From positions 1,248,001 to 1,312,000 of the forward strand of contig CAVSHF010000003.1 in NCBI GenBank assembly GCA_963727805.1: a stretch of DNA of 64,000 nucleotides. Reading direction: 5' to 3'. Under the pieces are notes generated by a model that worked only from the letters and a program-made list of their open reading frames with translations, searched no databases and was not told the origin of the DNA. This document shows, piece by piece, positions 12,353 through 40,405 of the stretch (position 1 is the stretch's first letter; every line of letters begins with the position of its first letter). This stretch comes from an uncultured Nitrospiraceae bacterium (GTDB lineage Bacteria > Nitrospirota > Thermodesulfovibrionia > Thermodesulfovibrionales > Dissulfurispiraceae). Made by a program: the position numbers and the translations under genes.

Positions 12353-12760
12353 ATTATTCCAAACAGTCGGAATCTTCCGCCCTATTAACCCAAACCCTGA
12401 TGACGATCTTCCTGAAATCCACTTGACTGCCTTCGTACGAGGTGAGAATACTCAGAAACTCAAACCCGTGTTTTCTGAAAACATCGGCCACTTCCCTGAT
12501 CTTCCCTTCTCGAGAAGATAATGGAGCTCATAGAAATCGTCCGTCGTCGCCTTTAATGGCATGAATTCCCTAATGTCCCTGTCCGTTACGATCCCTATCA
12601 TCTGGTCGCACCCCTCAACCGAAAGATGACTCACCTCATTCTCTCGCATAGTAAGCATAACCGAGGAGATACTTTCGTCAGCGCCATGCTGAGCCCGACA
12701 AAGGTAGAGATCGCCGAGAAGCATCCTGGCGATCAAGGTCTGCAGAAAAGTCCAATCTAT
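12353..12760 (-). pseudogene. Chimeric scar: livH N-terminal remnant + AcuB-type CBS and ACT remnants
   Basis: (I)DWTFLQTLIARMLLGDLY; then GIVTDRDIREFMPLKATTDDFYELHYLLEK; after frameshift GKIREVADVFRKHG..LSILTSYE..FRKIVIRV. Confidence 0.7.
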
Positions 12761-12786
12761 GGTGCCACCACCGGTGCGTCTTGAGT

Positions 12787-13968
12787 CTATCTTCTGTCTC
12801 TCCATGCCGGCATCGGATAGATGTAATTCTTGGTGGCGTATTTCACAGGCCAGATCAGCTCATACTTGCCATTCTGGACCTGAAGCGCGAAAGTCTCATG
12901 GAAATTCTGATTCTGGTATCCATCTCTGTCCTCGAATTTCACACGACCAAACGCTGTCATTATACTGGTCGCCTTGAGCGCCGCACGGATGTCTTCGGTA
13001 TTCCAGCTCTTCGCCTTCTCAAGTGCATTCTTGACAACAAAGAGTGCAGCATATGCCGATGCCCCATGATAAGACGGATAGTCACCGAATCTAGTCTTGT
13101 ACTTGTTAGCAAACTCATGCGCACCCGGATAGTTAAGCTGATAAAACCACAGGGTTGCCGTGATGACATATTCCGCTGCATCCTTCGCATTATTGATGAA
13201 CTCGGGGATGGTAAATCCAGCAGCACCGCCGGTATAGAGCTTAGCATCAACACGTAGTTCCTTGATCTGCTTCATCAGCAACGCTGCATCCATTACATAC
13301 GAAACCATATAGATGACGTCCGGATTAGCAGCCTTTACTGTCAAGAGAATCGGCTTGAAGTCAATCGTGCCTTTCTCATATTTCTCTTTCACCAGAACCT
13401 TGATATGCAGCTTTTTGGCCTGTCTCTCCATGTCTTCTGACGCGGAGGTACCGAAGTTGGTGCTCTCGTAAATAATCGCCATTGTCTTGGGCTTGACGAC
13501 TTCAGTCATGAATGAGATTACCGCATCAGTATAATGGTTGTTTGTGGCGTTCTGGCGAAAAACGTATTTATAGTGCTTCTGCGTGATTTCGTCTGCAGCA
13601 CTTGCAACAACCAGGTATGGCGTCTTCCATTCTTCAGCGACAGCAGCAACAGCCTTGGCGCAGGATGACGTGTATTCGCCGATAATTATTGGTTGCTTAT
13701 TCCTGATAAGTTTTTCGACAATTGCGCGCGCAGTTTCGGGCTTCGCCTCGGAGTCCTCGAACCGTAAAGTCAGGCGTTTACCCTTGATGCCGCCCTTGGC
13801 ATTGATTTCTTCGGCGGCAATCTCATAGGACCGTTTCTGAATCTCACCGACTTTAGCCTCGGACCCCGTCAACGGCAGCGGAATGGAAAGTTTGAGGTCG
13901 GCTGCATAGATTTGAGCAGCATAAAGCACTAAAAACAATATGATCGCAAGGATAAAAGAACGTTTCAT
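12787..13968 (-). CDS. Branched-chain amino acid ABC substrate-binding protein (LivK/LivJ family)
   Basis: Signal peptide, PLTGSEA, EEINAKGGIKG, GEYTSS, YVFR; AGGAG RBS. Confidence 0.9.
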   Translation of the reverse strand: MKRSFILAIILFLVLYAAQIYAADLKLSIPLPLTGSEAKVGEIQKRSYEIAAEEINAKGGIKGKRLTLRFEDSEAKPETARAIVEKLIRNKQPIIIGEYTSSCAKAVAAVAEEWKTPYLVVASAADEITQKHYKYVFRQNATNNHYTDAVISFMTEVVKPKTMAIIYESTNFGTSASEDMERQAKKLHIKVLVKEKYEKGTIDFKPILLTVKAANPDVIYMVSYVMDAALLMKQIKELRVDAKLYTGGAAGFTIPEFINNAKDAAEYVITATLWFYQLNYPGAHEFANKYKTRFGDYPSYHGASAYAALFVVKNALEKAKSWNTEDIRAALKATSIMTAFGRVKFEDRDGYQNQNFHETFALQVQNGKYELIWPVKYATKNYIYPMPAWRDRR

Positions 13969-14215: not shown

Positions 14216-14275
14216 AGTCCCTCCTTTCGTTGTTAGACTGATACTCATGTGTATATACCATACAGTGAGGTGACC

Positions 14276-14677
14276 ATGGGTCGGCAGCCGCTCTGGCCTT
14301 TTGTCGTCTATACCATCGCCGTTATTTTTATCTCGGCAGCGATGATCATCGCTTCATATCTGCTTGGGCAGCGGCACCGCGAGAATGATACGGAGGAACC
14401 TTACGAATCAGGCATCCTTGCCACCGGTTCGGCCCGGATGAGGTTTGACATTAAGTTTTACATGATCGCCATGTTCTTCATCATCTTCGACCTCGAATCG
14501 GTCTTCATCTTCGCCTGGTCCGTGTCCTTATTCGAAGCAGGCTGGTCGGGCTATTTAGGGATGCTATTCTTTATTGGCGTCCTCATGGTAATGCTGATTT
14601 ATTTGTGGAGAATCGGCGCTCTGGAATGGGGCCCGAAAAAAAGAATAACAGTAACGATTCAGAAAAGGCAGTTCTGA
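14276..14677 (+). CDS. nuoA: NADH-quinone oxidoreductase subunit A
   Basis: [25 protein letters not shown]. Confidence 0.95.
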
Positions 14678-14679
14678 CA

Positions 14680-15300
14680 ATGGACACCATGCCCGCCGGG
14701 ACCGGCAATCTGGGACAATCCATAGATGATACGGTCGGGAAAGTACTCATACTTTCACGCCTGCAGGACCTGCTCGCCTGGGGCCGCAAGAATTCCCTCT
14801 GGCCCTTCAATTTCGGACTTTCGTGTTGTTTCGTAGAGATGGCGACTAGTCTGACAAGCAAGTACGATATCGCCCGCTTCGGCGCGGAGGTGATACGCGG
14901 TACGCCCCGCGAAGCGGATGTGATGATCATAGCAGGCACCGTTTTCATCAAGATTGCCCCGGTAATCAAGCGCCTCTATCACCAGATGATGGAGCCGCGC
15001 TGGGTGATATCAATGGGATCCTGCGCGAACTCAGGCGGGATGTACGATATCTACAGCGTAGTCCAGGGGGTGGACAAGTTTCTCCCGGTGGATGTTTACG
15101 TGCCGGGATGCCCTCCCAGGCCCGATGCATTCATAGAGGGGCTGCTCCTTTTGCAGAAGGCAGTCGGCTCCGAAAGAAGACCACTCAGCTGGGTGGCCGG
15201 TCCGCAGGGCATTCAAAAGACGCCCGCTCCCTCGATGCGTGATCTACTGCGGAACGAGCGAATGAAGGTCGTCGACCTGAGATCTCCGGATGAAGTATGA
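14680..15300 (+). CDS. nuoB: NADH-quinone oxidoreductase subunit B
   Basis: [28 protein letters not shown]. Confidence 0.96.
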
Positions 15301-15306
15301 GGCATC

Positions 15307-17067
15307 ATGACTGAAACAGCAGCAGTGATTGGTGAACTCCAAAGCGCATTCGGCAGCAACAGCGTCATCCCCCAAGAAACGCGGGACGATATCCCGACTG
15401 CCTGGATATCACAGGACAAGGCGAGGGATATTCTCCGTCATCTGAAGACAGAAATCGAGCACCCATATGAAATGCTGTACGATCTTACGGCCGTAGACGA
15501 GCGGGCTCGCGTCCGCCTGCCCGACCCCCAGATGTCACGTCCGAAGCATGATTTCACTGTCGTGTATCACCTCCTGTCATTCGGGAGAAACGAGGACGTT
15601 AGGATCAAGGTCCCGCTCAAGGGCGATTCTCCTTCCATCAAGAGCATTGTCGACATCTGGCCTGCTGCGAACTGGTATGAGCGCGAGGCGTGGGACATGT
15701 TCGGGATCACCTTCGAAGGCCACCCGATCCTCAGGCGTATCCTGATGCCGGACTATTGGCAAGGTCATCCTCTTCGCAAAGACCATGCCTCACGCGCTAC
15801 TGACATGGAACCCTTCAGCCTTCCCGATGATATGGAGACTCTTCGTCAGAAAGAACTTCAGTTCCGTCCCGAGGAGTGGGGTCTTAAAAGAAATCTCCGG
15901 GACACGGACGTGATGTTTTTGAATCTTGGTCCGCAGCATCCCGGCACACATGGACTTCTACGGGTGATCCTGGAACTGGACGGGGAAGAGATCATAGACT
16001 CCACGCTTGATATCGGTTACCACCATCGGGGCGCGGAGAAGATGGGTGAAAGACAGTCGTGGCATACATATATCCCTTATACGGACCGGATAGATTACCT
16101 GGGCGGAGTGATGAATAATCTCGCCTATGTCCTTTCAGTCGAGAAGCTTGCGGGGATCGAAGTGCCCGGCAGGGCGAAGGTAATACGTGTCATGCTTTCG
16201 GAGCTTTTCCGCATTGCAAGCCATCTTGTTTGGTACGGGACGTTCGCCCAGGATGTCGGCGCGCTATCTCCTGTCTTTTACATGTTCACCGATAGGGAGC
16301 ACGTCTTCGACATCATTGCCGCGATTTGCGGAGGCAGGATGCACCCTAACTGGTTCAGGATAGGCGGTGTGGCCCAGGACCTTCCAAGTGGCTGGGACAG
16401 GCTGGTTACGGAATTCCTCGACTACATGCCTGCGCGGCTTGCTGAGTATGACAGGATCGTAATGGGCAATCAGATCTTCAAAGCGAGGACCAAAGGGATC
16501 GGATGCTATACAAAAGAGGAAGCTGTCGAATGGGGCATTACGGGACCGGGCCTGCGCGCCTGCGGCCTGCAATGGGACTTCAGGAAGAAAAGGCCGTACT
16601 CCGGTTATGACCAGTTCGAATTCGACATCCCAACGGCCTTAAACGGCGACTGTTACGACAGAGGAGTCGTTCGCGTAGAAGAGATGCGCCAGAGCCTTCG
16701 CATTATCAGGCAGTGTCTCGACAACATGCCGGGCGGCCCTTACAAGGCGCTCCATCCATCCGCCACACCCCCCATAAAGGACCGCACCATGCACGATATC
16801 GAAACGTTGATCGATCATTTCCTCGGGGTCAGCTGGGGGCCTGTGATTCCGTCGGGAGAGGCGAGTGTCGGGATCGAAGCGACCAAAGGGATCAACAGCT
16901 ATTATCTAATCAGCGACGGCAGCACTGTGCCTTACCGGGTAAGGATCCGTACGCCCTCTTTCCCTCACCTCCAGATGGTGCCGCTAATATGTCGTGGCTT
17001 GATGATACCCGATCTCATGGCCATTTTGGGAAGCATAGATTTCGTGCTTGCGGATGTAGACAGATGA
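15307..17067 (+). CDS. nuoCD: Fused NADH-quinone oxidoreductase subunit C/D
   Basis: [40 protein letters not shown], terminal DVDR. Confidence 0.96.
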
Positions 17068-17074
17068 GGCAGGA

Positions 17075-17536
17075 ATGATCACACAGGAAGAAAAACGAGA
17101 AATCGATGACGAGATAAAAAAGGCACCAACGAAAAAGGCGGCGGTCATCGATGTACTGAAGATCATGCAGAAACATCGGGGCTGGGTCACGGATAATGTC
17201 ATTGAAGAGGCGGCTGAACTGCTCGGCATGACGCCTGCCGAGGTTGACAGTATTGCCACTTTTTTCTCTCTTATTTTCCGCAGGCCTGTCGGCAAACATG
17301 TCATCCTCGTCTGCGACAGTGTAAGTTGCTGGCTTGTCGGGTATGAAGACATTAAGGACCACCTAATGAAACGGCTCGGCATATCGTTGGGCGAGACAAC
17401 AAAGGACGGCAGATTCACACTCCTGTCCTCAGCTTGCCTTGGCCTATGCGAAGAGGCCCCGGCGATGATGATAGATGAGAACCTCTTTACGAAACTGACC
17501 ACGTCTCTCGTGGACGAGATACTCGGAAGATATTGA
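17075..17536 (+). CDS. nuoE: NADH-quinone oxidoreductase subunit E
   Basis: VCDSVSC...CLGLC [2Fe-2S] motif. Confidence 0.95.
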   Translation: MITQEEKREIDDEIKKAPTKKAAVIDVLKIMQKHRGWVTDNVIEEAAELLGMTPAEVDSIATFFSLIFRRPVGKHVILVCDSVSCWLVGYEDIKDHLMKRLGISLGETTKDGRFTLLSSACLGLCEEAPAMMIDENLFTKLTTSLVDEILGRY

Positions 17537-18834
17537 TGGAAATGATAAACGAAAAACCTCTCACGAAAAATTTTCGCCCCAACGGGACTCCCTGCAATCT
17601 AAAAGAGTACGAACAATCGGGCGGCTACCGCGGTCTCCGTAAGGCCCTCGCAGACCACGACCATGAGGAGGTCATCGACATGGTCGTACGGGCGAACCTT
17701 CTTGGCAGAGGCGGCGCCGGGTTCCCGGCGGGCAAGAAGTGGAGCCTCGTACCGATGGGAGAAAATGTCCCCCGCCCGAAATATGTAGTCTGCAATTTCG
17801 ACGAGATGGAGCCGGGCAGCTTCAAGGATAGATTCCTTGCCGAGGGAGACCCACATCAACTCATCGAAGGGCTGATCCTGGCGGGTTACGCAATCGAGGC
17901 CGAAATAGGTTATATCTTCATCCGCAAGGACTATGTGAAGGCCGCCCGGATATTGAACGCGGCAATAGCGGAAGCTTACACTAATCATTACCTCGGCAGC
18001 AATATCTTCGGCTCCGGTTTCAATTACGAACTTCATCTCCATGTAAGCGCGGGCCGATACATCTGCGGGGAATCGAGTGCCCTGTTGAACGCCCTCGAAG
18101 GCGGCCGCGCAATACCCAGAAGCAGGCCGCCCCATATGTCTTCTATGGGTCTATGGGGAAAGCCGACAGTCGTCAACAATGTCGAGACGATTTGCAATGT
18201 GCCACACATAGTCGCAAACGGCCCCGAATGGTTCAGGGAACTCAGTTATACGGAGGAAGGTGGCACTAAAATCTATGGAGTCAGCGGTAGGGTCAAAAGG
18301 CCGGGCGCATGGGAGCTACCGGTGGGCACACCCCTGAGAGAAATACTTGAAAAACACGCCGGCGGAATGCAGGATGGCTTCAAGTTTCGTGGGGCGCTTC
18401 CCGGTGGCGCGTCTAGCAACTTCGTGATCGACGAGCACCTCGATACGAGGATGGACTTTGCCTCGATGAAAAGGGTACAGAGCCATTTCGGTACTGGCAC
18501 GGTCATCGTCCTTGACGACGGCAACTGTCCTGTCGGCATGGTATTGAACCTCCAGAGATATTTCGCCCGCGAATCCTGCGGTTGGTGCACTCCCTGCCGG
18601 GAGGGACTTCCCTGGATCGTCCATGTCCTTGAAGCGCTTGAAGAAGGAAGCGGCACGCCGGAGGATATCGAAATGCTCGAATCACATACGAAACTGCTCA
18701 AGACTGGAAATACTTTCTGCACCCTTGCGCCTGCGGCGATGTTTTCTCTCGAAAGCGCCCTGCGTCACTTCAGAGAGGATTTTGAGCAGCATATACGCAT
18801 GAAAAGATGTTCATATCGCTTAGGGGCGGGATAA
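17536..18834 (+). CDS. nuoF: NAD(P)H-binding flavoprotein subunit F
   Basis: GRGGAGFP, DEMEPG.FKDR, YICGES, NNVET, ESCGWCTPCREG. Confidence 0.96.
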   Translation: MEMINEKPLTKNFRPNGTPCNLKEYEQSGGYRGLRKALADHDHEEVIDMVVRANLLGRGGAGFPAGKKWSLVPMGENVPRPKYVVCNFDEMEPGSFKDRFLAEGDPHQLIEGLILAGYAIEAEIGYIFIRKDYVKAARILNAAIAEAYTNHYLGSNIFGSGFNYELHLHVSAGRYICGESSALLNALEGGRAIPRSRPPHMSSMGLWGKPTVVNNVETICNVPHIVANGPEWFRELSYTEEGGTKIYGVSGRVKRPGAWELPVGTPLREILEKHAGGMQDGFKFRGALPGGASSNFVIDEHLDTRMDFASMKRVQSHFGTGTVIVLDDGNCPVGMVLNLQRYFARESCGWCTPCREGLPWIVHVLEALEEGSGTPEDIEMLESHTKLLKTGNTFCTLAPAAMFSLESALRHFREDFEQHIRMKRCSYRLGAG

Positions 18835-18846
18835 CCTCGTCCCTAC
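18821..18846. repeat. Degenerate GTAG-family REP-like palindrome
   Basis: TAGGGGCG-GGATAACCT-CGTCCCTAC; contains the nuoF stop codon. Confidence 0.55.
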
Positions 18847-18857
18847 CAAAACAATTA

Positions 18858-21575
18858 ATGGCAACGATATACATAGAAAATAAGCCTTACGATGTCAGGG
18901 AAGGAAGGAACCTACTGGAGGCATGCCTCGATCTCGGCTTCGACATTCCCTACTTTTGCTGGCATCCGGCCCTCGGGTCAGTGGGCGCATGCAGGCAGTG
19001 CGCCCTGAAGCTCTTCCACGATGATAAAGATACGAAGGGCAATATCATTATGTCCTGCATGACCCAGGTAAAAAACGGAATGCGCATCTCCATCGACGAT
19101 CCAGAGGTAGTGCAGTTCAGGCGGAGCTGCATCGAGTGGCTCATGCTCAACCATCCCCACGACTGTCCCGTCTGCGACGAAGGAGGTGAATGCCATCTCC
19201 AAGACATGACGGTGATGACTGGGCACGTTTACCGAAAAACACGTTTCAGGAAACGCACGCATCAAAATCAGTATCTCGGCCCTTTCTTAACCCATGAGAT
19301 GAACCGCTGCATACAATGTTACCGCTGCGTCAGGTTTTACTGCGATTATGCGGGAGGCCGTGATCTCAATGTATTTTCAGCACATGATCATGTCTATTTC
19401 GGGCGCTACCAAGATGGCATACTTGAAAGCGAATTCAGCGGCAATCTTGTCGAGATCTGCCCCACCGGTGTTTTCACCGACAAGACCCTCAAGGAGCACT
19501 ACACCAGGAAATGGGATCTCCAGACAGCACCATCAATATGCGGCCATTGCGCTCTCGGATGCAACACCCTCCCTGGCGAAAGGTACGGATCTGTCAGGAG
19601 AGTGCAAAACAGGTTCAACAGCAGGGTGAATGGGAACTTCCTATGCGACAGGGGCAGATTCGGCTATGCCTTCGTCAACAGCCCTGACAGAATCAGGAAG
19701 CCGGTCATGCGAAGTATCGGAGGAGACCTGAAGGAGGCGTCACAGGAAGACGTGCGGGATTACTTAAGAAGCTTATTCCATTTCGGCGCGCACGCTGTCG
19801 GCATTGGTTCTCCGAGAGCATCCCTCGAAGCCAATTTTGCACTTCGCACCCTTGTTGGTCCCGAATCATTTTACTTGGGGATGTCATCTGCGGATTACCG
19901 TTTGGTGTCCCTCATAACCGATATACTGAGTAAAGGACCGGCTGTAACTCCATCATTGGAAGACATGAGAAATTCGGATGCTGTGCTGATACTTGGGGAA
20001 GACGTCACCAACACCGCTCCGCTCGCAGACCTGGCCCTGCGACGTGCCGTGCGTCAGCAACCTATGAAAAAAATGGACGCGGGTGGCATCCCCCGTTGGA
20101 ACAACCTGGCCGTTAGTTATGTCACGCAGGACGAAAAAGGGCCTCTATTCGTCGTGTCGCCTGCGCGCACAAAACTCGACGACATAGCAACAGCCACGTA
20201 TCGGGCCGCCCCCAATGATCTAGCCCGATTCGGTTTTGCTATCGCCCATGCACTGCACAACGAAGCCCCGCAGGCCGGAGAATTTTCCGAAGGTGATCTT
20301 TCTCTGATCAATGATATCGCAACTGCGCTCAAGAAGGCAGACAGACCGCTGATCGTCTCCGGCACAGGATGCAGGAGCGAGGCGGTAATCCAAGCCGCAG
20401 CCAATATCGCGTGGGCGCTGAACGCGACAAACCATCGAGCAGGACTGTGTTACGTCGTACCCGAATGCAACTCACTTGGTCTTATGCTCATGGGAGGCAT
20501 CAGCATCGAAGAGGTCTTTACAACGGATATTTCGCATGCTGAAACGCTTGTCATACTTGAACGTGATCTATATAAGCTTGCAGAGAAGCGCAGCGTCGAC
20601 GCCTTCCTTGCGAAATTTAGACATGTAATCCTTCTAGATTGCCTGCCCTCTGAGACTGCATCAAGGGTTGAACTCCTGCTGCCTTCAGCTACCTTCACCG
20701 AAGGAGACGGCACCCTTGTAAACAATGAAGGACGCGCGCAGCGCTTCTATCGTGTATTTGCGTCATCCGATATGGTGCGTGACAGTTGGAGCTGGATAAT
20801 CGATATGTTAAAAGCAGCTGGGAATCCTTATGCGGCAACATGGAGCACGATTGATGATATCAATAAATCTATGGCAGAAGACGTTCCGATATTTTGCACT
20901 ATTCCTGAGATCGCGCCACCGGCCGGCTTCAGAATAAGCGGGATGAAGGTCCCCCGCCAGCCGCACCGCTACAGCGGCCGGACTGCGATGCATGCGGATA
21001 TCAGCGTGCACGAACCGAAACCTACGGATGATCCCGACTCGCCCTTGGCCTTTACGATGGAAGGATACGAGAATTTGCCTCCACCTTCACTCATAACGCG
21101 CTACTGGACTCCGGGATGGAACTCAGTTCAGTCCCTGAGCAAATTCCAGGACGAAATCGGAGGGGCTCTGCGTGGCGGGGATCCCGGCATCCGACTGATC
21201 GAGCCTCATGAAGAAGCGGACCCGCAATATTTCCCGAAGGTACCCGCACCTTCGGGTCATAAAGCGAAGGAGTGGACTGTAGTCCCTCTCTATCATATCT
21301 TCGGATCAGAGGAACGGAGCATGCTCTCTCCGGCCATCGCCGAGCTTGCGCCGCGACCTTATTTGGCACTCAACTCGGAAGATATGAAGCATCTGAAGGT
21401 TGCAGAAGAAGATATGGTCACGCTGACATGGAATGAAGAAAGATTGTACCTCCCGGTCAAGCGCGAGGATTCCCTGACGAAAGGCGTTGCTGGCTTACCG
21501 TTCGGTTTGCCGAAGATGAAGTGGATCGATTTCGATGCAAGGTACAGAATGACACCAATGGAGCAAAAGCAATAA
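18858..21575 (+). CDS. nuoG: NADH-quinone oxidoreductase subunit G (long type with N7 motif)
   Basis: FCWHP..GACRQC, HPHDCPVCDEGGECHLQ, RCIQCYRC, CGHCALGC..CDRGR. Confidence 0.96.
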   Translation: MATIYIENKPYDVREGRNLLEACLDLGFDIPYFCWHPALGSVGACRQCALKLFHDDKDTKGNIIMSCMTQVKNGMRISIDDPEVVQFRRSCIEWLMLNHPHDCPVCDEGGECHLQDMTVMTGHVYRKTRFRKRTHQNQYLGPFLTHEMNRCIQCYRCVRFYCDYAGGRDLNVFSAHDHVYFGRYQDGILESEFSGNLVEICPTGVFTDKTLKEHYTRKWDLQTAPSICGHCALGCNTLPGERYGSVRRVQNRFNSRVNGNFLCDRGRFGYAFVNSPDRIRKPVMRSIGGDLKEASQEDVRDYLRSLFHFGAHAVGIGSPRASLEANFALRTLVGPESFYLGMSSADYRLVSLITDILSKGPAVTPSLEDMRNSDAVLILGEDVTNTAPLADLALRRAVRQQPMKKMDAGGIPRWNNLAVSYVTQDEKGPLFVVSPARTKLDDIATATYRAAPNDLARFGFAIAHALHNEAPQAGEFSEGDLSLINDIATALKKADRPLIVSGTGCRSEAVIQAAANIAWALNATNHRAGLCYVVPECNSLGLMLMGGISIEEVFTTDISHAETLVILERDLYKLAEKRSVDAFLAKFRHVILLDCLPSETASRVELLLPSATFTEGDGTLVNNEGRAQRFYRVFASSDMVRDSWSWIIDMLKAAGNPYAATWSTIDDINKSMAEDVPIFCTIPEIAPPAGFRISGMKVPRQPHRYSGRTAMHADISVHEPKPTDDPDSPLAFTMEGYENLPPPSLITRYWTPGWNSVQSLSKFQDEIGGALRGGDPGIRLIEPHEEADPQYFPKVPAPSGHKAKEWTVVPLYHIFGSEERSMLSPAIAELAPRPYLALNSEDMKHLKVAEEDMVTLTWNEERLYLPVKREDSLTKGVAGLPFGLPKMKWIDFDARYRMTPMEQKQ

Positions 21576-22525
21576 TGAACATAATCATCGGCATAATCAT
21601 TCCGCTGGGTGTCCTTTTTTCCGTGCTGATAACCGCAGCGGGACTAATCTGGCTTGAAAGACGGCTCCTAGCCTTCTGGCAGGACCGATACGGCCCTAAC
21701 CGAGTCGGCACATACGGTCTACTTCAACCGCTGGCGGACGCGATCAAGCTGATGTTCAAGGAAGACTGGATTCCCCCCTTCTCCGACAAGCCAGTATTCA
21801 TACTCGCTCCGATTGTTATTGTGATAACCGTCATCCTTGCTTTTGCAGTTATACCCTTTGCGCCGGGTATCATTATTGCGGACCTCAACATTGGACTTCT
21901 CTTTTTCCTGGGCATGTCATCATTGGGCGTTTACAGCGTAGTCCTGGGTGGCTGGTCATCGAACAGCAAATACTCTCTTTTAGGCAGCCTGAGGGCCTCA
22001 GCTCAAATGCTCAGTTATGAGGTATGTATGGGCATCTCCGTTATGGGTGTCGTGATGATGACTGGCTCCTTCAATCTCGTCGATATTGTCGAGGCACAGA
22101 GGATTGGATGGTACGGTGTCCCACAGTTTTTGGGGATGGTGATCTTCATCATCGCCGGCCTCGCTGAAACACGACGTCTTCCCTTCGACCTGCCCGAGGC
22201 TGAGAGTGAACTCGTAGCAGGTTTTCATACGGAGTACTCGGGAATGAAGTTCGGACTCTTCTTTGTCGGAGAATATATCGGCATCACTCTGGTTTCGGCA
22301 ATGATCGTAACGCTCTATTTCGGTGGATGGCTCGGGCCATTTTTGCCTCCTATCATCTGGTTTTTGATCAAAACGTTTCTGTTTATCTGCGGGTTTATCT
22401 TGATCAGGGCAGCGCTGCCAAGACCTCGATACGATCAGCTTATGTCTTACGGATGGAAAATATTACTACCTCTTGCGATGGTGAACCTGCTGATCACAGG
22501 TGCTTTCCTGTTGGGGCCAGTATAG
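21575..22525 (+). CDS. nuoH: NADH-quinone oxidoreductase subunit H
   Basis: QDRYGPNRVG, ADAIKLMFKE, RLPFDLPEAESELVAG, PRPRYDQ. Confidence 0.96.
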   Translation: MNIIIGIIIPLGVLFSVLITAAGLIWLERRLLAFWQDRYGPNRVGTYGLLQPLADAIKLMFKEDWIPPFSDKPVFILAPIVIVITVILAFAVIPFAPGIIIADLNIGLLFFLGMSSLGVYSVVLGGWSSNSKYSLLGSLRASAQMLSYEVCMGISVMGVVMMTGSFNLVDIVEAQRIGWYGVPQFLGMVIFIIAGLAETRRLPFDLPEAESELVAGFHTEYSGMKFGLFFVGEYIGITLVSAMIVTLYFGGWLGPFLPPIIWFLIKTFLFICGFILIRAALPRPRYDQLMSYGWKILLPLAMVNLLITGAFLLGPV

Positions 22526-22549
22526 GGGCGGTTCGAGAACCTTCCCAAC
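22522..22549. repeat. Degenerate GTAG-family REP-like palindrome
   Basis: ATAGGGGCGGTTCGAGAACCTTCCCAAC, 23/28 identical to the perfect palindrome GTAGGGGCGGTTCGCGAACCGCCCCTAC; supplies the nuoH TAG. Confidence 0.6.
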
Positions 22550-22569
22550 TGTAATATTGAAAGGAAAAT

Positions 22570-23085
22570 ATGATCGGTACTTTAAGAAGCATCTGGAATG
22601 TATTCCTTCATCTCTTCAGAAAGAAGGAGACTATACTCTATCCTGAAGAGAAGCCTTACTTGCCTCCGCGTTGGAGGGGCCGTATTATTCTTTCGAGGGA
22701 TCCCGGCGGCGGAGAACGCTGCGTAGCCTGCTACCTTTGCGCTGCCGCATGTCCGGTTGACTGCATATCTTTACAAGCCACTGAGGACCAATATGGCAGA
22801 AGGTACCCGGAGTTCTTCCGAATCAATTTTTCACGCTGCATCTTCTGCGGTTTCTGCGAGGAGGCATGCCCGACCTATGCTATACAGCTAACTCCAGACT
22901 TCGAGATGGCGGAGTACCGGCGTGAGAACCTTGTATACGAAAAGGAGGACCTTCTGATTAGCGGTCCCGGTAAATATCCTGAATATAGTTACTACAAAGT
23001 CGCCGGGACATCAATAGCAGGCAAAAAAAAAGGCGAGGCGGAGAACGAGGGTCCGCCTGTGGATGTACACTCGTTGATGCCATGA
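22570..23085 (+). CDS. nuoI: NADH-quinone oxidoreductase subunit I
   Basis: [12 protein letters not shown] and [12 protein letters not shown]. Confidence 0.96.
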
Positions 23086-23107
23086 AGGAAATGACGGAGG
23101 AACAGCG

Positions 23108-23635
23108 ATGATGTCGTTTTTTTATATTTCGGCTGCCGTGGCCCTGATATCCTCGGTCCTTGCGATCAGCAGGTCGAATGCAGTCCACGCATTGCTCTAT
23201 GCTATTGTATCACTCTTGTCGGTTGCGCTGGTGTTCTTTATCCTCGGGGCGCCCTTTGCTGCGGCCCTGGAAATGGTTATCTATGCGGGGGCGATCATGG
23301 TACTCTTCGTATTCGTCATCATGATGATCAGTGCTGGACCGGGAGCAAAGCAGCAGGAGAGGAACTGGATGAGCTTCCGAATATGGTTTGGGCCGTCCGT
23401 GCTTGCGACGGTCCTTATAGTTGAATTGTTGGCCATCATTTCGTATCCGCAATCACCGGTGACGGCAAATCCCGTTGTTGAATCTAAGCAGGTGGGCATA
23501 GCACTGATGGGCCCATATATACTCGGAGTCGAACTCTCGTCACTCCTGCTGACGGCCGGGCTTGTCGGTGCCTACCACCTCGGGAAGCGCAAGGGAGATG
23601 CTTCTCAGATAGAGGAGGTGCGACTTGATGACTAA
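23108..23635 (+). CDS. nuoJ: NADH-quinone oxidoreductase subunit J
   Basis: YAGAIMVLFVFVIMM; hydrophobic; synteny. Confidence 0.94.
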   Translation: MMSFFYISAAVALISSVLAISRSNAVHALLYAIVSLLSVALVFFILGAPFAAALEMVIYAGAIMVLFVFVIMMISAGPGAKQQERNWMSFRIWFGPSVLATVLIVELLAIISYPQSPVTANPVVESKQVGIALMGPYILGVELSSLLLTAGLVGAYHLGKRKGDASQIEEVRLDD

Positions 23636-23936
23636 CGTGCCTGCGGAATATGGTTTGATTTTAGCCGCGCTGCTCTTCGCTACAGGTCTCGCAGGAGTGC
23701 TTGCCAGACGCAACATAATCTTCATCCTCCTGTCCATCGAGATCATGCTGAATGCAGCGGGACTGGCGTTCATAGCCGCGGGTTCGAAATGGGGACAGCC
23801 TGACGGACAGATCATGTTCATTTTCATCCTGGTGATGGCCGCTGCCGAAGTATCTGTCGGACTCGCCATCGTACTGCAGTTGTTTCATCATATTAAAACG
23901 GTAAACAGCGACGAAGCCAATACTATGAGAGGATAA
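23628..23936 (+). CDS. nuoK: NADH-quinone oxidoreductase subunit K
   Basis: RRN...SIEIMLNA, AAAEVSVGLA. Confidence 0.95.
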   Translation: MTNVPAEYGLILAALLFATGLAGVLARRNIIFILLSIEIMLNAAGLAFIAAGSKWGQPDGQIMFIFILVMAAAEVSVGLAIVLQLFHHIKTVNSDEANTMRG

Positions 23937-25826
23937 ATGCTCTTACAGCTCTGGTTGATACCTGCTCTTCCTTTTGCGGGATTCGTCATCCTTGCCCTCT
24001 TGGGAGCTAGGATGCAACGGCCTTTTGTTGCGGCCATAGGCGCGGGCTTCGTCGGGGTCTCCGCTCTTGTCGCGCTGGCCATAGCGATATCCTTCATGGC
24101 TGCGCCTCCTGCAGGTCAAATCTACACTCAGCACTTGTGGCAATGGATCGATGTTGATGGGTTCAGGCCTGATATCTCTTTGTCTCTCGATGCTCTCTCT
24201 CTGGTGATGATCCTCGTTATCACTGTCGTGGGCTTCCTGATTCACCTTTATTCAACTGAGTCCATGTCTGGTGAGGAGGGCTACAGCCGGTTCTTCGCTT
24301 ACATGAATCTATTTGTTGGTTCGATGCTAACGCTAGTCCTGGCGGATAACCTGCTTCTGCTCTATCTGGGGTGGGAAGGCGTCGGGCTTTGCAGCTACCT
24401 CCTGATCGGCTTCTGGTATACAGACCCTGCCAATGGACGTGCTGCAATGAAGGCCTTCATCGTAACTCGAGTCGGTGATGCAGCCATGGCGATCGGCCTC
24501 TTCATTCTCTATCAAAACCTCGCCACTCTCCAGATTCATGAAGTACTGATCAGGGCAGTAGAGCAATGGCCCTCAGGCTCCACTCTTGCAATCACAGCGG
24601 CGGCCCTTCTTCTCGGTGGCGCGGTTGGTAAATCAGCTCAGATTCCGCTCCAGACGTGGCTGCCGGACGCGATGGCAGGACCCACTCCGGTGAGCGCCCT
24701 CATACATGCGGCTACGATGGTAACGGCCGGTGTATACCTGATAGCTCGGACCCATGTACTATTTACCCTCGCCCCCCCTGTTGAACTTGCCGTGGCGGTA
24801 ATAGGCGCCGCAACACTGCTCCTTGCGGGTATCAGCGCTATAGTGCAGAGAGACATCAAGCGCGCGCTTGCCTACTCCACAATGAGCCAGATCGGCTATA
24901 TGTTCCTTGCCCTTGGCGTCGGGGCATGGTCCGCTGCGATCTTTCATTTCATGGTACATTCCTTTTTCAAGGCCCTACTCTTTTTGAGTGCAGGAGTTGT
25001 AATAGATGCCCTCCACCATGAAAGGGACATGTTCAAGATGGGGGAACTCCGCCGTAAGCTCCCTTTGGCCTTCTGGTGCTTCCTGATCGGGGCGAGTTCG
25101 CTCTCCGCGCTCCCGCTGATTACAGCAGGATTCTACAGCAAGGACCTGATACTCTGGAAGGCATTGTCTTCAACTCAGGGGAGCGGCTGGCTCTGGGCTG
25201 CGGGTTTGGCCGGGGCCCTGTTAACTTCTATATATGCCTTTCGCATGGTATTCCTCACCTTTTACGGAAAGGCGCATTCGGAAGCAGCAGGCAAAACGGG
25301 TTTACGGATAAAGGTACCCCTGATAACTCTTGCCGTCCTTTCACTGATCGGAGGATTTATCCAAGTGCCTGAGATACTCGGCGATATCCCGCTTTTTTCG
25401 GAAATCGTAACAACCGCTCTGCCTGCGACAACGACCATCCCGGTTGCGATGTCCGAGAGCACCATGCAATACATCTCGGCGTTCGTATCACTCTTTGGCG
25501 TATTCATAGCCTACATCTTCTTCCTCTACAATCCGCTTTATGCGAGAAACTTCCTCTCCAAACCCTTTGGATACGCGCTTCATTGCTTCCTTTACGGCGG
25601 ATGGAACTTTGACCGCCTGTACGAAGTCCTTTTTGTCCATCCCTTTGTCTGGACGGCCCGGGCCAACAAACGCGATATCGTCGACCGGTTTTACCAGCTC
25701 GTCGCCTTGCTCAACATGGTTTTGAACCGACTGCTGAGCACATCCCAGAGCGGCCTTGTCCGAAGATACGCCTTCGGCATCGCCCTCGGAGCGATAATAA
25801 TCATAGGCGCGGTGGTCCTGAGATGA
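23937..25826 (+). CDS. nuoL: NADH-quinone oxidoreductase subunit L
   Basis: GWEGVGLCSY, GKSAQIPLQTWLPDAMAGPTPVSALIHAATMV. Confidence 0.96.
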   Translation: MLLQLWLIPALPFAGFVILALLGARMQRPFVAAIGAGFVGVSALVALAIAISFMAAPPAGQIYTQHLWQWIDVDGFRPDISLSLDALSLVMILVITVVGFLIHLYSTESMSGEEGYSRFFAYMNLFVGSMLTLVLADNLLLLYLGWEGVGLCSYLLIGFWYTDPANGRAAMKAFIVTRVGDAAMAIGLFILYQNLATLQIHEVLIRAVEQWPSGSTLAITAAALLLGGAVGKSAQIPLQTWLPDAMAGPTPVSALIHAATMVTAGVYLIARTHVLFTLAPPVELAVAVIGAATLLLAGISAIVQRDIKRALAYSTMSQIGYMFLALGVGAWSAAIFHFMVHSFFKALLFLSAGVVIDALHHERDMFKMGELRRKLPLAFWCFLIGASSLSALPLITAGFYSKDLILWKALSSTQGSGWLWAAGLAGALLTSIYAFRMVFLTFYGKAHSEAAGKTGLRIKVPLITLAVLSLIGGFIQVPEILGDIPLFSEIVTTALPATTTIPVAMSESTMQYISAFVSLFGVFIAYIFFLYNPLYARNFLSKPFGYALHCFLYGGWNFDRLYEVLFVHPFVWTARANKRDIVDRFYQLVALLNMVLNRLLSTSQSGLVRRYAFGIALGAIIIIGAVVLR

Positions 25827-27370
25827 TACTGATTTTTCTTATAGCCATTCCTCTCATCGGGGGCATCCTCTCCTGGCTTTCTACGCGCTTTCATCGCAGG
25901 GCGCCCTTCTGGATATCTCTGACAACCCTTACCGCTAATCTTGCTATCGCGCTTTGGATATGGATAACCTGGGCGGCCGTGACAGTTTCTGGAGGGATGC
26001 AGGACCAGTGGATTGTCGATTTCAAATATCCCTGGATCCCCAATCTCGGAATCGGGATTCACCTTGCACTTGATGGACTCAGTCTGGTCCTCATAACTCT
26101 CACTGCTTTGCTCGGTATCGTAGCACTCATTTCATCCTGGTCCGAGATCAGGGAGCGCATAGGCTTTTTCCATGCCAATATGATGTTCATAATCGCTGGG
26201 ATACTCGGTGTCTTTCTGTCGCTCGATCTCTTTCTCTTCTACTTCTTCTGGGAGCTGATGCTCGTACCGATGTATTTCCTCATTGGCATCTGGGGCCATG
26301 AAAACCGCATCTATGCAGCGACGAAATTCTTTATATTCACGCAGGCGGGCGGACTGCTGATGCTTGTCTCGATCTTGGGGCTCTATTTTATCCATGCCCG
26401 GACAACGGGCGTTTATACATTCGACTATTTCCAGTTGCTCGGCACTGCCCTTTCGACTTCTGAAGGCCTCTGGCTCATGTTGGGGTTTGCCATCGCCTTT
26501 GCCGTCAAACTGCCTGCCGTGCCCTTTCATCCGTGGCTTGCTGATGCACATACCGAGGCACCTACTGCGGGAAGCATAATCCTTGCGGGACTCCTGCTGA
26601 AAACGGGGGCTTATGGGTTCCTGAGATTCGTGCTCCCTCTCTTCCCCGAAGCATCTTCGGTCATCGCTTTACCCGCGATGCTTGTGGGTACGGTATCGAT
26701 ACTCTACGGCGCCACCCTCGCCTTCTCTCAGACCGACTTCAAAAGACTCATAGCTTACACAAGCGTTAGTCACATGGGTTTTGTGCTCCTCGGCATCTTC
26801 GCCTTCAATGGACTCGCCCTGCATGGAGTGGTCATGCAAATGGTAGCGCACGGTATCAGCACCGGAATGCTCTTTTTCATCGCAGGTGCGCTCCAGGAGC
26901 GGATGCACACGCGGGACATGACCCTCATGGGCGGGATGTGGTCGACCGCACCTCGCATGGGCGCTGTGGCACTCATATTCGCCGTCGCCTCGCTCGGCCT
27001 ACCGGGAATGGGTAATTTCGTAGGTGAATTTCTTGTGCTGCTGGGCTCCTATAAAGCTGATGCTGTGATTACGGCGATAGCGACAACGGGGCTCATCGCC
27101 GCTACAGTTTACGCTGTCTGGATGATGCATGTGACGTTTTTCAGCGATGCAAAGACGCCTTGTAAATTTCCAGACTTCTCGATTCGTGAGATGATGGTAG
27201 CGACGGTGATGATCATCGCCATAATCGGGATCGGTCTCTATCCGCAGCCTGTGCTTGATGCTGCAAAGGATTCTATGAACAGCCTGCAAAGAACCATGGA
27301 GGGCGCTAAATTTTCGATTAATCATGAAGATCATAAGACCTCAGTCGCTGAAACGGTAGGCAGCCGATGA
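25823..27370 (+). CDS. nuoM: NADH-quinone oxidoreductase subunit M
   Basis: FYFFWE, KLPAVPFHPWLADAHTEAP, LGLPGMGNFVGE. Confidence 0.96.
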   Translation: MILIFLIAIPLIGGILSWLSTRFHRRAPFWISLTTLTANLAIALWIWITWAAVTVSGGMQDQWIVDFKYPWIPNLGIGIHLALDGLSLVLITLTALLGIVALISSWSEIRERIGFFHANMMFIIAGILGVFLSLDLFLFYFFWELMLVPMYFLIGIWGHENRIYAATKFFIFTQAGGLLMLVSILGLYFIHARTTGVYTFDYFQLLGTALSTSEGLWLMLGFAIAFAVKLPAVPFHPWLADAHTEAPTAGSIILAGLLLKTGAYGFLRFVLPLFPEASSVIALPAMLVGTVSILYGATLAFSQTDFKRLIAYTSVSHMGFVLLGIFAFNGLALHGVVMQMVAHGISTGMLFFIAGALQERMHTRDMTLMGGMWSTAPRMGAVALIFAVASLGLPGMGNFVGEFLVLLGSYKADAVITAIATTGLIAATVYAVWMMHVTFFSDAKTPCKFPDFSIREMMVATVMIIAIIGIGLYPQPVLDAAKDSMNSLQRTMEGAKFSINHEDHKTSVAETVGSR

Positions 27371-28803
27371 CCCCGAATGATCTCATGGCCTTGCTGCCGC
27401 TGATGGTTCTCTCTTCGACCACGATCACCGTCATGCTCGGCATCGCAGCCTCCCGCAGTCACAGCTTCACCGCGACACTCGCCCTCTTCGGCATTTATTT
27501 GTCATTCCTGTCTCTTGCCCTTGCTTATTCAGAAGCGCCTCGCCAAGTTACTCCTTTGATCGTGGTAGACAATTTTGCACTCCTATATATGGCCCTCATA
27601 CTCTTATCCGGCTTTATTACCGCTGTTCTTTCCTTCGGATATCTAAATAAGCTTCAAATCAATCGCGAAGAATTCTATCTGCTTCTTCTCCTTGCGTTGC
27701 TTGGTGCTATGGTTCTGGTCTGCAGCTGCCACTTCGCTTCATTCTTTCTTGGGCTGGAGATCCTAAGCGTCAGCCTGTATACGCTCATCGCATATCCCAA
27801 GAGTCGGATTAAACACGTCGAAGCGGGGATGAAATATCTGGTATTAGCTGCAGTATCGTCGGCATTCCTGCTATTCGGCATGGCGCTGATATATGCCGAT
27901 TCAGGCTCCATGATGCTTTCGGTCATAGCATCTAAAGCAGCACATAATGCCCATTATACCTTGTCCTTCACAGCTGGTCTAGTACTGATGCTTGTCGGGA
28001 TCGGCTTCAAACTGGCGCTCGTGCCGTTCCACATGTGGACGCCCGACGTGTATGAAGGAGCGCCCGCGCCCGTGGCTGCATTTATCGCGACGGTTTCCAA
28101 GGGCGCGGTATTTGCTCTTCTGCTCAGGTATTTCGCTCAAACCGATTTCTTGAAATCTGATACACTGTTCCTTGTATTTGGATTCATTTCATTCGTTTCC
28201 ATGGTTGCCGGAAATCTTCTCGCACTGTTCCAGAACAATATCAAAAGGGTTCTTGCATATTCGTCCATTGCTCACATGGGCTACGTGCTCGTCGCGTTCC
28301 TGGCAGGCGGCGCGCTCGCAACACAGGTTGTGTCTTTTTATCTCGTAACCTATTTCGTGACGACCTTCGGTGCTTTTGGCATCATCACTCTGTTATCGGA
28401 TTCTAAGAAAGATGCTGACGATATTGAGGATTACCGAGGAATGGCATGGCACCGTCCTTTTCTCACCGCTGCCTTTACAGCCATGATCTTCTCACTGGCG
28501 GGGATTCCCCTGACCGCAGGATTTATCGGTAAGTTTTACCTCATCTCCGCCGGTGCATCGTCGGAGTTATGGGTGCTCATAGTCACTCTAGCACTGAGCA
28601 GCGTCATAGGGCTATTCTATTATCTCCGTATTATCTTCAGCCTCTATGCGCGGCCCTCTGGAGATCAAATGCCTTCCCTCCCCCTTATCTCCATTACCGG
28701 GAGTGTTTTCCTCGCAGTCCTCACGCTGCTTCTGTTATGGATTGGTATTTACCCCGACCCTCTGATGGAAGGGATCAAATCAGTGCTGGGACGATTTTCA
28801 TGA
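27367..28803 (+). CDS. nuoN: NADH-quinone oxidoreductase subunit N
   Basis: FKLALVPFHMWTPDVYEGAP, AYSSIAH, LAGIPLTAGFIGK. Confidence 0.96.
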   Translation: MTPNDLMALLPLMVLSSTTITVMLGIAASRSHSFTATLALFGIYLSFLSLALAYSEAPRQVTPLIVVDNFALLYMALILLSGFITAVLSFGYLNKLQINREEFYLLLLLALLGAMVLVCSCHFASFFLGLEILSVSLYTLIAYPKSRIKHVEAGMKYLVLAAVSSAFLLFGMALIYADSGSMMLSVIASKAAHNAHYTLSFTAGLVLMLVGIGFKLALVPFHMWTPDVYEGAPAPVAAFIATVSKGAVFALLLRYFAQTDFLKSDTLFLVFGFISFVSMVAGNLLALFQNNIKRVLAYSSIAHMGYVLVAFLAGGALATQVVSFYLVTYFVTTFGAFGIITLLSDSKKDADDIEDYRGMAWHRPFLTAAFTAMIFSLAGIPLTAGFIGKFYLISAGASSELWVLIVTLALSSVIGLFYYLRIIFSLYARPSGDQMPSLPLISITGSVFLAVLTLLLLWIGIYPDPLMEGIKSVLGRFS

Positions 28804-28845
28804 TGACTACGAAGATGACCGTCAGTGGAAAAAAGGAGAGACGTG

Positions 28846-29394
28846 ATGAATGAATGCAGAGAATGCCCGTCCCCTGAAAATATGGGGACAAAAATCGCGA
28901 CGACTCGCCGCCGATTTCTTGAGGCAATGATAGCCATTGCTACATTGCTTATTAGTGCGATACTTGGCGTCCCCTTCATCGGTTCGCTGATGCGATCGCA
29001 AGCCAGTGCTCAAAAAGAGAAGTGGGTGAAGGTCGCCGATGTCCAATCGATTCCCGATGGCGAACCGCTACGATTGAATTTCATCCAGAGTGAAATGGAT
29101 GCCTATCGAGAACAAGAAACGGTACATTCAGTCTGGATCGTCAAACATTCCCCGTCTGAAATAGCAGTCTATTCCCCCATCTGTCCTCATGCAGGATGCT
29201 ATTTCAACTGGAATGCACAGCGCAGGCTTTTTGAATGTCCGTGCCATGGGAGCGTGTTTAGGGTCGATGGCCCGGTCGTCTCGGGCCCTGCACCGCGCCA
29301 ACTGGACGCCCTTCCCGTCAAAGTAAAAAATGGCGCTTTATTTGTTATCTGGAAACGCTTCAAAGCGGGCATACCAGATAAAATTGCGGTCTAG
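28846..29394 (+). CDS. Rieske [2Fe-2S] subunit of a Rieske/cytochrome b complex
   Basis: TRRRFL Tat motif + TM helix; CPHAGC and CPCHGS boxes; AAGGAG RBS. Confidence 0.92.
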   Translation: MNECRECPSPENMGTKIATTRRRFLEAMIAIATLLISAILGVPFIGSLMRSQASAQKEKWVKVADVQSIPDGEPLRLNFIQSEMDAYREQETVHSVWIVKHSPSEIAVYSPICPHAGCYFNWNAQRRLFECPCHGSVFRVDGPVVSGPAPRQLDALPVKVKNGALFVIWKRFKAGIPDKIAV

Positions 29395-29406
29395 GGGAGG
29401 GATTGA

Positions 29407-36702: not shown

Positions 36703-37617
36703 CTAGATCCCCCCTTTCTCTTTTTTTACGGCATGACCTCCGAATTCATTTCTCAGGGCGGCGATAAGCTTGTCGGAGAATGAATCGGTTTGACGAGAGC
36801 GGAACCGCTGAAAAAGAGAGAGCGCAAGCACTGGTGCAGGCACCGATGCTTCGATGGCTTGGAGAATAGTCCATCGTCCCTCTCCGGAATCGTCAACATA
36901 TCCCTTAATCCGCGAAAAAGAAGGGTCTTTTTCAAAAGCATCCTCAGCGAGCTCCAGGAGCCATGAGCGGACTACGCTCCCTTGGTTCCACAGATGAGCA
37001 ACCTTCGAAAAGTTGAGTTCACCAGCATAGGGAGAGGCATTCATAATAGCGAAACCTTCGCCATAGGCTTCGAGCATTCCATATTCGATACCATTATGGA
37101 CCATCTTAACGAAGTGACCTGCTCCGGATGGTCCACAGTAAAGGTATCCGCCCGTTGGTGCAAGAGTTGCAATGGCAGGCTCTAGCTGTGTAAATACTTC
37201 CTCATCTCCCCCTATCATCTGGCAATATCCGACCTTCAATCCCCATATGCCTCCGCTCACTCCGATATCCAGATAATTAATTCCGGCAGTCTTCAGCGAC
37301 GCACTCCTTCGCAACGCATCTTTGTAAAAGCTGTTCCCACCGTCAACAATCGTATCGCCTTTCTGTAGAAGGCCGCTCAACGATTCAATATGGTCATCGA
37401 CGGTCGTGCCGGCAGGCAGCATCAGCCAGACAAATCTCGGTGTCACGAGCTTCTCGACCAGTTCTGCGAGTGAATATGCGCCCGCAGCTCCTACCTTCAC
37501 GATTTCATCGACCTTATCGGAGGACCTGTTGAACGCGACCACATCATGCCCTCCCTTTACCAGCCGTAGCGCCATATTCATCCCCATCCGTCCGAGTCCC
37601 ACCATTCCTATCTGCAT
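36703..37617 (-). CDS. gnd: 6-phosphogluconate dehydrogenase (decarboxylating, short type)
   Basis: GLGRMG, FNRS, DGGNS, GVSGG, GHFVKMVHNGIEY, DSGEGRW, FGGH. Confidence 0.95.
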   Translation of the reverse strand: MQIGMVGLGRMGMNMALRLVKGGHDVVAFNRSSDKVDEIVKVGAAGAYSLAELVEKLVTPRFVWLMLPAGTTVDDHIESLSGLLQKGDTIVDGGNSFYKDALRRSASLKTAGINYLDIGVSGGIWGLKVGYCQMIGGDEEVFTQLEPAIATLAPTGGYLYCGPSGAGHFVKMVHNGIEYGMLEAYGEGFAIMNASPYAGELNFSKVAHLWNQGSVVRSWLLELAEDAFEKDPSFSRIKGYVDDSGEGRWTILQAIEASVPAPVLALSLFQRFRSRQTDSFSDKLIAALRNEFGGHAVKKEKGGI

Positions 37618-37628
37618 GTACGTCCTCC

Positions 37629-38402: not shown

Positions 38403-38408
38403 TTCGCG

Positions 38409-39950: not shown

Positions 39951-40405
39951 GTCTGCAAAAACTCCTTTTCGATGGCAGTGACCTTGCCGAGTCTCCTGAC
40001 GTGTCTTTCAGCCTCTGAAAATCTCGCCACCAGAAAAAACGAAACGAGCTCCTTGGCAAGTTCTTCGCCGATAACTCTGGCTCCAAGACAGAGGATATTG
40101 ATGTTGTCATCCTCGACGCCCTGATGGGCTGAAAACGAGTCATGGCAGAGAGCGGCTCTTATGCCTGGGAATTTATTCGCGGCGACCGATGCGCCGACCC
40201 CGCTTCCGCATATCAAGATGCCCCTATCTGCGCCTCCTTTTAGAATCGTCTCCGCAACTGCCCTCGCAAAATCGGGATAGTCGTCCAAAGGCTCATGAAC
40301 AAAAGCGCCCGCATCTATGACGTCATGTCCTTTGTCAGATAAAAAGTGTGCGATTATCCCCTTAAGATCAAACCCGCCATGGTCGGAAGCAATCACTATT
40401 TTCAT
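39947..40405 (-). CDS. rpiB: Ribose-5-phosphate isomerase B
   Basis: SDHGG, DYPD, CGSGVG..ANK..GIRAA, RH.RR. Confidence 0.93.
   Translation of the reverse strand: MKIVIASDHGGFDLKGIIAHFLSDKGHDVIDAGAFVHEPLDDYPDFARAVAETILKGGADRGILICGSGVGASVAANKFPGIRAALCHDSFSAHQGVEDDNINILCLGARVIGEELAKELVSFFLVARFSEAERHVRRLGKVTAIEKEFLQT

Follow-up and report, generated by a model that had tools for sequence, protein, structure and literature searches.

Does a complex I whose NuoF subunit lacks the glutamate that binds the adenosine ribose of NADH remain an NADH dehydrogenase, or can it draw electrons from NADPH? Complex I counts as an NADH enzyme, and its NADPH-using forms appear in the literature accessible to us as engineered mutants only. 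The residue changed in E. coli NuoF by Morina and colleagues in 2011 was reportedly E183. The locus considered here lies in a 64,000-nt stretch of contig CAVSHF010000003.1 (the window), from an uncultured bacterium of the Dissulfurispiraceae, a family of the Thermodesulfovibrionia. A first-pass annotation, made from the letters of the window alone, had noticed a Ser in the nucleotide-binding motif of its NuoF and had proposed a natural NADPH:quinone oxidoreductase.

Results

The window nuoF is an intact 433-codon open reading frame (17533..18834, plus strand), and at 18058..18078 the in-frame codons TAC ATC TGC GGG GAA TCG AGT specify YICGESS, as first read, where the canonical motif is YICGEET. 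A 67-residue piece of the protein aligned without gaps to residues 162-228 of E. coli NuoF (7awt_F), 164-227 of T. thermophilus Nqo1, and 299-365 of T. kivui HydB and, from query residue 5, to residues 242-303 of R. capsulatus FdsB. These alignments place the Ser (TCG, 18073..18075) at the position of NuoF E183, Nqo1 E185, FdsB E259, and HydB S320, bearing out its assignment to the second Glu of the motif. They also place the second Arg of the nearby RSRPPH sequence (AGG, 18124..18126) at K200 and the His of that sequence, with the Met beyond it (18133..18138), at F203-P204; the His (CAT, 18133..18135) corresponds to HydB R340 and FdsB L279. The FMN and N3 motifs had been called intact, and a motif scan found the Gly-rich loop GRGGAGF, NxDExEP, NNVET, and all four N3 cysteines (FMN loop, 17704..17724; N3 cysteines, 18577..18720), together with a feature that had been overlooked, a Phe in NxDE where most relatives have Ala. 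Among solved structures, E. coli NuoF ranked first as the nearest to the window protein. An alignment-based model (mean pLDDT, 87) had the E. coli NuoF fold (TM score, 0.90 to 0.91 against 7awt_F) and was weakest at the pocket (pLDDT, 55 to 63 over residues 171-210); the pLDDT of a single-sequence prediction was 34.

The gene sits in a run of 13 contiguous open reading frames, nuoA-B-CD-E-F-G-H-I-J-K-L-M-N, in which C and D are fused and all A-N subunits are encoded, all on the plus strand. The nuoA, nuoB, fused nuoCD, and nuoE genes (14249..17536) were identified from the open reading frame list, cluster motifs, and curated profiles (NuoCD passes NF008728, and NuoE passes TIGR01958); nuoG (18807..21575) encodes about 905 aa with the N1b, N5, N4, and N7 cysteine motifs; and within nuoH, I, J, K, L, M, and N (21521..28803), NuoI has its cluster motifs, and nuoJ and nuoK were assigned by similarity to a second nuo cluster of the genome. 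Curated cutoffs were passed by NuoCD, E, G, H, L, M, and N (at least one each for the last four), while NuoF itself passes NF010120 (393 versus 389), falls just under TIGR01959 (547 versus 559), and is well under NF008436. A motif scan of the operon found the FMN-site motifs and the Fe-S ligands of N1a, N3, N1b, N4, N5, N6a/b, and N2; the adenosine-ribose position, where Glu goes with NADH selectivity, is occupied by Ser in the NuoF alignment.

Clade E complex I is described by Spero et al. 2015 (PMC4453560) as having a fused NuoCD, a NuoG near 894 aa, and an N7 motif of CXXCXXXC-X27-C. The window operon has the fused NuoCD, a 905-aa NuoG, and the N7 motif and is predicted to be an intact E. 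coli-type (clade E) complex I operon; judging from the intact NuoCD, H, L, M, and N, its product would couple quinone reduction to proton pumping. It resembles E. coli complex I in gene set, fused NuoCD, long NuoG with N7, NuoF fold (TM score, 0.90; 53% identity), and the position of the residue at issue, but differs in having a Rieske/cytochrome bc module behind the operon. We rejected a Bfu/HydB-type bifurcating subunit (~600 aa, extended at both termini by Fe-S domains), given 433 codons here versus 584 to 630 aa in solved HydB chains.

The bc-type module, a Rieske protein and a cytochrome b fused to two c-type heme domains (28825..31386, plus strand), directly follows nuoN and is syntenic in G003, G007, and G010. 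A Rieske plus cytochrome b/c module and gnd also occur near E. coli-type nuo operons in several families (L167, L172, L174, and L177), and the changing order suggests a mobile respiration module. Ahead of the nuo operon lies a short CBS-like open reading frame (12452..12805; 117 aa), whose counterparts in G002 and G007 have 217 aa and follow ABC-transporter genes that are missing in the window, so it is likely a deletion remnant.

Conservation was examined in a 150-row NuoF alignment (the query, the best 120 of 8000 scored database matches, and 29 genome loci, with some proteins present twice). With the database matches limited to those best 120 of 8000, Ser-Ser, Arg, His, and Met were present in 15 of 15 rows of at least 76% identity, Asp occupied the E183 position in 5 of 5 rows at 70 to 75%, and Glu was present in 111 of 114 rows (3 non-Glu) at 59 to 69%, where Arg was found at the K200 position in 15 rows and His at the F203 position in 28; in the rows below 50% identity in the 150-row alignment, Glu was found in 15 of 16. 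The first-pass annotation had set RSRPPH against a usual K-P-P-F, and while the residues were correctly read, the Arg and His counts among those 114 rows show the sequence to be less unusual than it had seemed. The Ser rows grouped on a single branch (SH-aLRT, 99) lying within the Asp rows, which indicates one origin; the stem of the Ser clade is long (0.38). Three homologues at 76 to 85% identity have a source name, and two of these are Dissulfurispiraceae. NuoF of the window's type was present in 7 of 8 genomes of the genus searched, all with TCG, and among 46 genomes with this type (43 of 301 from a class-wide search and 3 from a first search), the residue was Ser in 7, Ala in 1, and Glu in 38.

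A base-call error, already judged unlikely in the first pass, is ruled out by the TCG codon in all seven Ser-type genome loci and by Ser in all 15 of the closest homologues. The dN/dS ratio of nuoF against four relatives was 0.042 to 0.064, and that of NuoCD was 0.050 to 0.065; these ratios are rough because synonymous sites are near saturation. Such purifying selection, at the level seen for NuoCD, rules out decay of the gene. The change to Ser is an old one that has been fixed and maintained. A contig from run X1 covers 17799..18704 with 0 differing letters, but X1 is possibly the source sample and hence is not counted as support; in three wetland RNA runs, contigs contained short pieces of related nuo genes, and the Ser codon lay outside the matches listed.

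At about 20 positions that are conserved elsewhere, the Ser clade carries a fixed change. Many of these changes are common to the Asp sister group, and the shared substitutions, along with the Asp itself, suggest that the lineage was drifting before Ser arose. Besides the Phe in NxDE, clade-wide changes at conserved sites include Leu in place of Arg ahead of the Gly loop and Phe-Ser in place of Glu-Pro beyond the final N3 cysteine, and these, too, are mostly common to the Asp group. That group (P0010 to P0014), which has His-Thr at 203-204, is a possible evolutionary intermediate.

We then compared the pocket with those of characterized homologues. The FdsB Glu forms a hydrogen bond to the 2'-OH of the NADH ribose; E259G, E259Q, E259R, and E259K gained NADP activity and had lowered NAD activity, whereas the wild type and E259D had no NADP activity, and L279R, altered at the position of the window His, had NADP activity too (PMC10671435, which cites the same NADP effect for a change of the E. 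coli complex I glutamate). Ser was not among the E259 replacements named (G, Q, R, K, and D). The HoxF E341A/S342R variant of C. necator, likened to the window NuoF by description rather than alignment, accepts NADP+ (review PMC10127272). Both are engineered, soluble enzymes that do not pump protons; the FdsB substitutions fall by alignment at the same pocket positions as the changes seen here. Compared with the engineered Glu183 variants of E. coli complex I, the present change is natural and lineage-wide, is to Ser, and is accompanied by His-Met at F203-P204.

A natural parallel is T. kivui HydB (8a6t_B), which has CGEST with S320, an Arg at the K200 position, and R340 at the position of the window His. 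T. kivui HydABC showed 20.8 U/mg with NADP+ and <0.01 with NAD+ and is described as strictly NADP specific (PMC8578170); in the structure with NADP bound, R340 is given as a contact of the nucleotide (PMC10021017). The HydB signature, a nonacidic residue 183 with a basic residue 203, is found in the window NuoF as Ser plus His; as an NADP signature it rests on this one characterized enzyme, and it is also present in A. mobile WorB. HydB differs in that it is part of a soluble, bifurcating hydrogenase that lacks a membrane arm; it is 630 aa long, carries additional ferredoxin domains, and has Arg where the window NuoF has His. Among five aligned homologues, the three NAD-linked ones (7q4v, 7t2r, and 9bov) have Glu and Phe. 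WorB (9mqx_B), in contrast, has CGESS and His at the same positions as the window NuoF, yet it was solved with NADH (9MQX) and is described as NAD reducing (PMC12318220; echoed in PMC11725836). It belongs to a soluble aldehyde oxidoreductase, WorABCSL, and is a counterexample: the Ser-His pair is compatible with NADH and is no proof of NADP preference. The Arg at K200, although invariant in the Ser clade, was rejected as an NADP marker because it is also present in NAD-using 7q4v_B and 7t2r_B and in the 15 of 114 mostly Glu-containing relatives counted above, and the 28 relatives with His203 show that this residue, too, occurs beside Glu. Thus, the earlier suggestion that Ser with the nearby Arg and His could accommodate a 2'-phosphate agrees with HydB and the engineered FdsB and HoxF for the Ser and the basic residue 203, whereas the Arg drops out and WorB speaks against it.

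Is the window operon alone in this respect? A motif scan of GTDB genomes for a nonacidic residue at E183, with a pattern blind to Asp, Gln, Asn, His, and Lys, returned at least 120 loci, and 93 of the 120 listed were NuoF homologues. Among 80 listed loci with flanks, 63 were NuoF, and 48 had NuoCD or NuoH within 5 kb, 38 of them with both; 11 of the 48 were partial or frameshifted and were left out of later counts. The matches listed included Thermodesulfobacteriota, Myxococcota, Actinomycetota, Pseudomonadota, and Nitrospirota and had Ala, Gly, Val, or Ser. On a NuoF tree for which 187 rows were thinned to 126 at 88% identity and the motif columns omitted, there were six switches between acidic and nonacidic states, at least three of them on well-supported branches; database proteins and loci L015 to L030 were taken as complex I irrespective of gene context (L016 has E, F, and G alone nearby). 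With position 203 assigned by counting back from a downstream motif, Phe203 was present in 39 of 79 acidic versus 0 of 47 nonacidic rows, and Arg203 was present in 0 of 79 versus 11 of 47. Under phylogenetic control, this covariation was not significant (no more than three independent pairs on well-supported branches, too few for significance; P of 0.5 to 1, never in the opposite direction). Substitutions like this one at E183 are found in many nuo operons, and the window case is not unique. A deltaproteobacterial group (L041, L042, L055, L081, L092, L096, L098, and L109) has Val at E183 and Tyr at 203, and its K200 region is replaced by Gln or Met; this may be a different remodeling and not necessarily one for NADP use.

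The Ser form belongs to one genus of uncultured sulfate-reducing bacteria. The genome from which the window comes, rated 100% complete, encodes DsrA, heme-copper oxidase subunit I, an NADP-type isocitrate dehydrogenase, and an NfnA-like protein. PntB transhydrogenase was not found in it, and no RnfC scored above the cutoff. PntB was present in 0 of 6 Ser genomes searched versus 4 of 39 others, and because its absence is so common in the control genomes, we do not take it as support for NADPH use. An NDH-2 search of the genome gave no match, and the same search also missed the E. coli control. Three other NuoF homologues in the genome are HydB-type proteins of 601 to 647 aa, and a second complex I cluster (G000:C3:384470-394659) encodes nuoA-D and nuoH-N without nuoEFG; the window NuoF is therefore the genome's only stand-alone NuoF. 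Locus L031 (G000:C3:438421-446179) encodes NuoD, NuoI, a small open reading frame of unknown function, a fusion of a response-regulator receiver domain with NuoE, a NuoG/Fdh-like protein, and a HydB-type protein in which Ser (CGEST) stands at the E183 position and Gln at that of F203. This locus may serve the cluster without EFG as a second input module, possibly an NADP-linked one. Elsewhere (G000:C5:920418-924626), two apparent hdrC/hdrB-like pairs, named from the sequence, lie ~2.7 kb apart with equal lengths and identical N termini and are either a real duplication or an assembly artifact.

About 5 kb beyond the bc module, on the opposite strand, the window has a pentose phosphate cluster, tkt-tal-zwf-pgl-gnd (36703..43091, minus strand), whose Gnd has an Asn-Arg-Ser motif of the NADP type; in the Gnd coenzyme loop, Asn-Arg-Thr marks NADP and Asp marks NAD, according to PMC8900737. 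NCBIfam labels for the window Gnd conflict (NADP in NF007161, NAD in TIGR00872). A short Gnd was found in 43 of the 46 genomes with window-type NuoF and within 45 kb of nuoF in 23. The motif was Asn-Arg in 8 of 8 genomes with nonacidic NuoF, compared with Asp in 21, Asn-Arg in 9, Asn-Lys in 3, and another motif in 2 of 35 genomes with Glu-type NuoF; where gnd lay within 45 kb of nuoF, Glu genomes had Asp in 15 of 20 and Asn-Arg in 1 of 20, and Ser genomes had Asn-Arg in 3 of 3, although the Ser genomes are one lineage, which limits the comparison. Asn-Arg Gnd is also common in relatives without a window-type nuo operon, and with phylogenetic control the association with the NuoF residue was not significant (no more than four independent pairs on well-supported branches, too few for significance; P of 0.5 to 1, never in the opposite direction). 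The pattern would fit a module in which the product of the pathway matches the substrate of the pump, and we regard it as a lead, not proof. Within Glu-type NuoF, His203 goes with NADP-type Gnd (7 of 9 genomes, namely, G010, G160, G193, G201, G209, G221, and G278, versus 3 of 26 otherwise), an association not significant on the tree.

Discussion

The cofactor, direction, and partners of the window enzyme are what we infer from this anatomy. The reading that we favor, and consider probable though well short of certain, is that a NuoF without the ribose Glu makes this an NAD(P)H-accepting complex I that would take NADPH, alone or alongside NADH, pump protons, and reduce quinone. With loss of the Glu that binds the 2'-OH of the adenosine ribose, the enzyme likely oxidizes NADPH, and since its Ser is that of NADP-specific T. 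kivui HydB, NADPH is likely used as well as or instead of NADH. Dual use seems likeliest because the engineered variants kept some NAD activity and the genome has no other stand-alone NuoF. In such an enzyme, the Ser would leave space for the 2'-phosphate, which the His at the F203 position (HydB Arg340) might help to hold. NADPH would be provided by the neighboring Zwf and NADP-type Gnd and by the NADP-dependent isocitrate dehydrogenase; with or without NADH, it would reduce the FMN in NuoF, from which electrons would travel through the usual series of clusters to quinone and so drive the membrane arm. The quinol would presumably be handed to the neighboring Rieske/cytochrome bc module and, beyond it, to the terminal oxidases of the genome.

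The most serious alternative, which we regard as unlikely, is that the enzyme is essentially an NADH dehydrogenase in which Ser was tolerated, compensated, and fixed once, any NADPH activity being incidental. WorB, which binds NADH with the same Ser and His, is consistent with this view, as are the roughly 20 fixed changes, many shared with the Asp group, the position of the window protein as the only stand-alone NuoF, and the nonsignificant covariation tests for both Gnd and residue 203. The Asp state of the sister group also counts against the NADPH reading, since E259D gave no NADP use in FdsB. However, Glu is kept in 111 of the 114 next-nearest homologues among the best 120 of 8000 matches, so its loss is not neutral in general, and all four nonacidic FdsB substitutions named above gave NADP activity and lowered NAD activity.

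It is less probable still that an NADP-type pocket serves an enzyme running mainly in reverse, using proton motive force and quinol to make NADPH for biosynthesis. The lack of PntB and of an RnfC above the cutoff in a complete genome would fit this idea, and the second cluster without nuoEFG could carry the forward flow; against it, NADPH sources are already encoded (Zwf, NADP-type Gnd, NADP-dependent isocitrate dehydrogenase, and the NfnA-like protein), PntB is missing in 35 of 39 non-Ser relatives and so does not single out the Ser clade, and the operon runs into a bc-type module. A NuoF that binds no pyridine nucleotide productively and takes another electron carrier, or a decaying or miscalled gene, is very improbable: other substitutions close to the flavin site (Ala to Phe in NxDE, for example) and the long stem branch would suit it, but the dN/dS ratio of nuoF equals that of other subunits, the Gly-rich loop, NxDExEP, NNVET, and all cluster motifs are intact, and the same TCG codon is found in seven genomes.

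For the favored NAD(P)H-accepting complex I, the nearest analogies at the level of physiology are Geobacter SfrAB, a "putative NADPH dehydrogenase" (PMC2825233), and Nuo-Bfu (PMC9304861), in which NADPH-rich catabolism or an alternative input module feeds a Nuo-type pump. These use separate or swapped modules, whereas the window operon keeps canonical NuoEFG, with the pocket alone altered. In the literature searched, with most subscription papers outside its scope, we found no report of a natural complex I with an E183 substitution, and the accessible parts of PMC6560083, PMC8357420, PMC5562879, PMC9304861, PMC2825233, and bioRxiv 10.64898/2026.06.25.734504 describe no natural case. New here are a Ser form that matches HydB exactly, the Asp sister group, the WorB counterexample, and the Gnd lead.

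We offer a broader hypothesis only tentatively and think it somewhat more apt to fail than to hold: NADPH-preferring, proton-pumping complex I would be a natural and widespread class that arose, in the sample examined, at least three and up to six times through loss of the acid at E183 and of F203. In the window's lineage, the pump, an oxidative pentose phosphate pathway of the NADP type, and a bc complex would make up one cofactor-matched module, through which sulfate reducers would respire sugar-derived NADPH directly, without a transhydrogenase. Should a natural NADPH-using complex I be real, models of NADPH balance would change for many anaerobes whose operons are annotated as NADH dehydrogenases, a two-residue marker would become available for cofactor prediction, and nature would have supplied an evolved template for linking proton pumping to NADPH.
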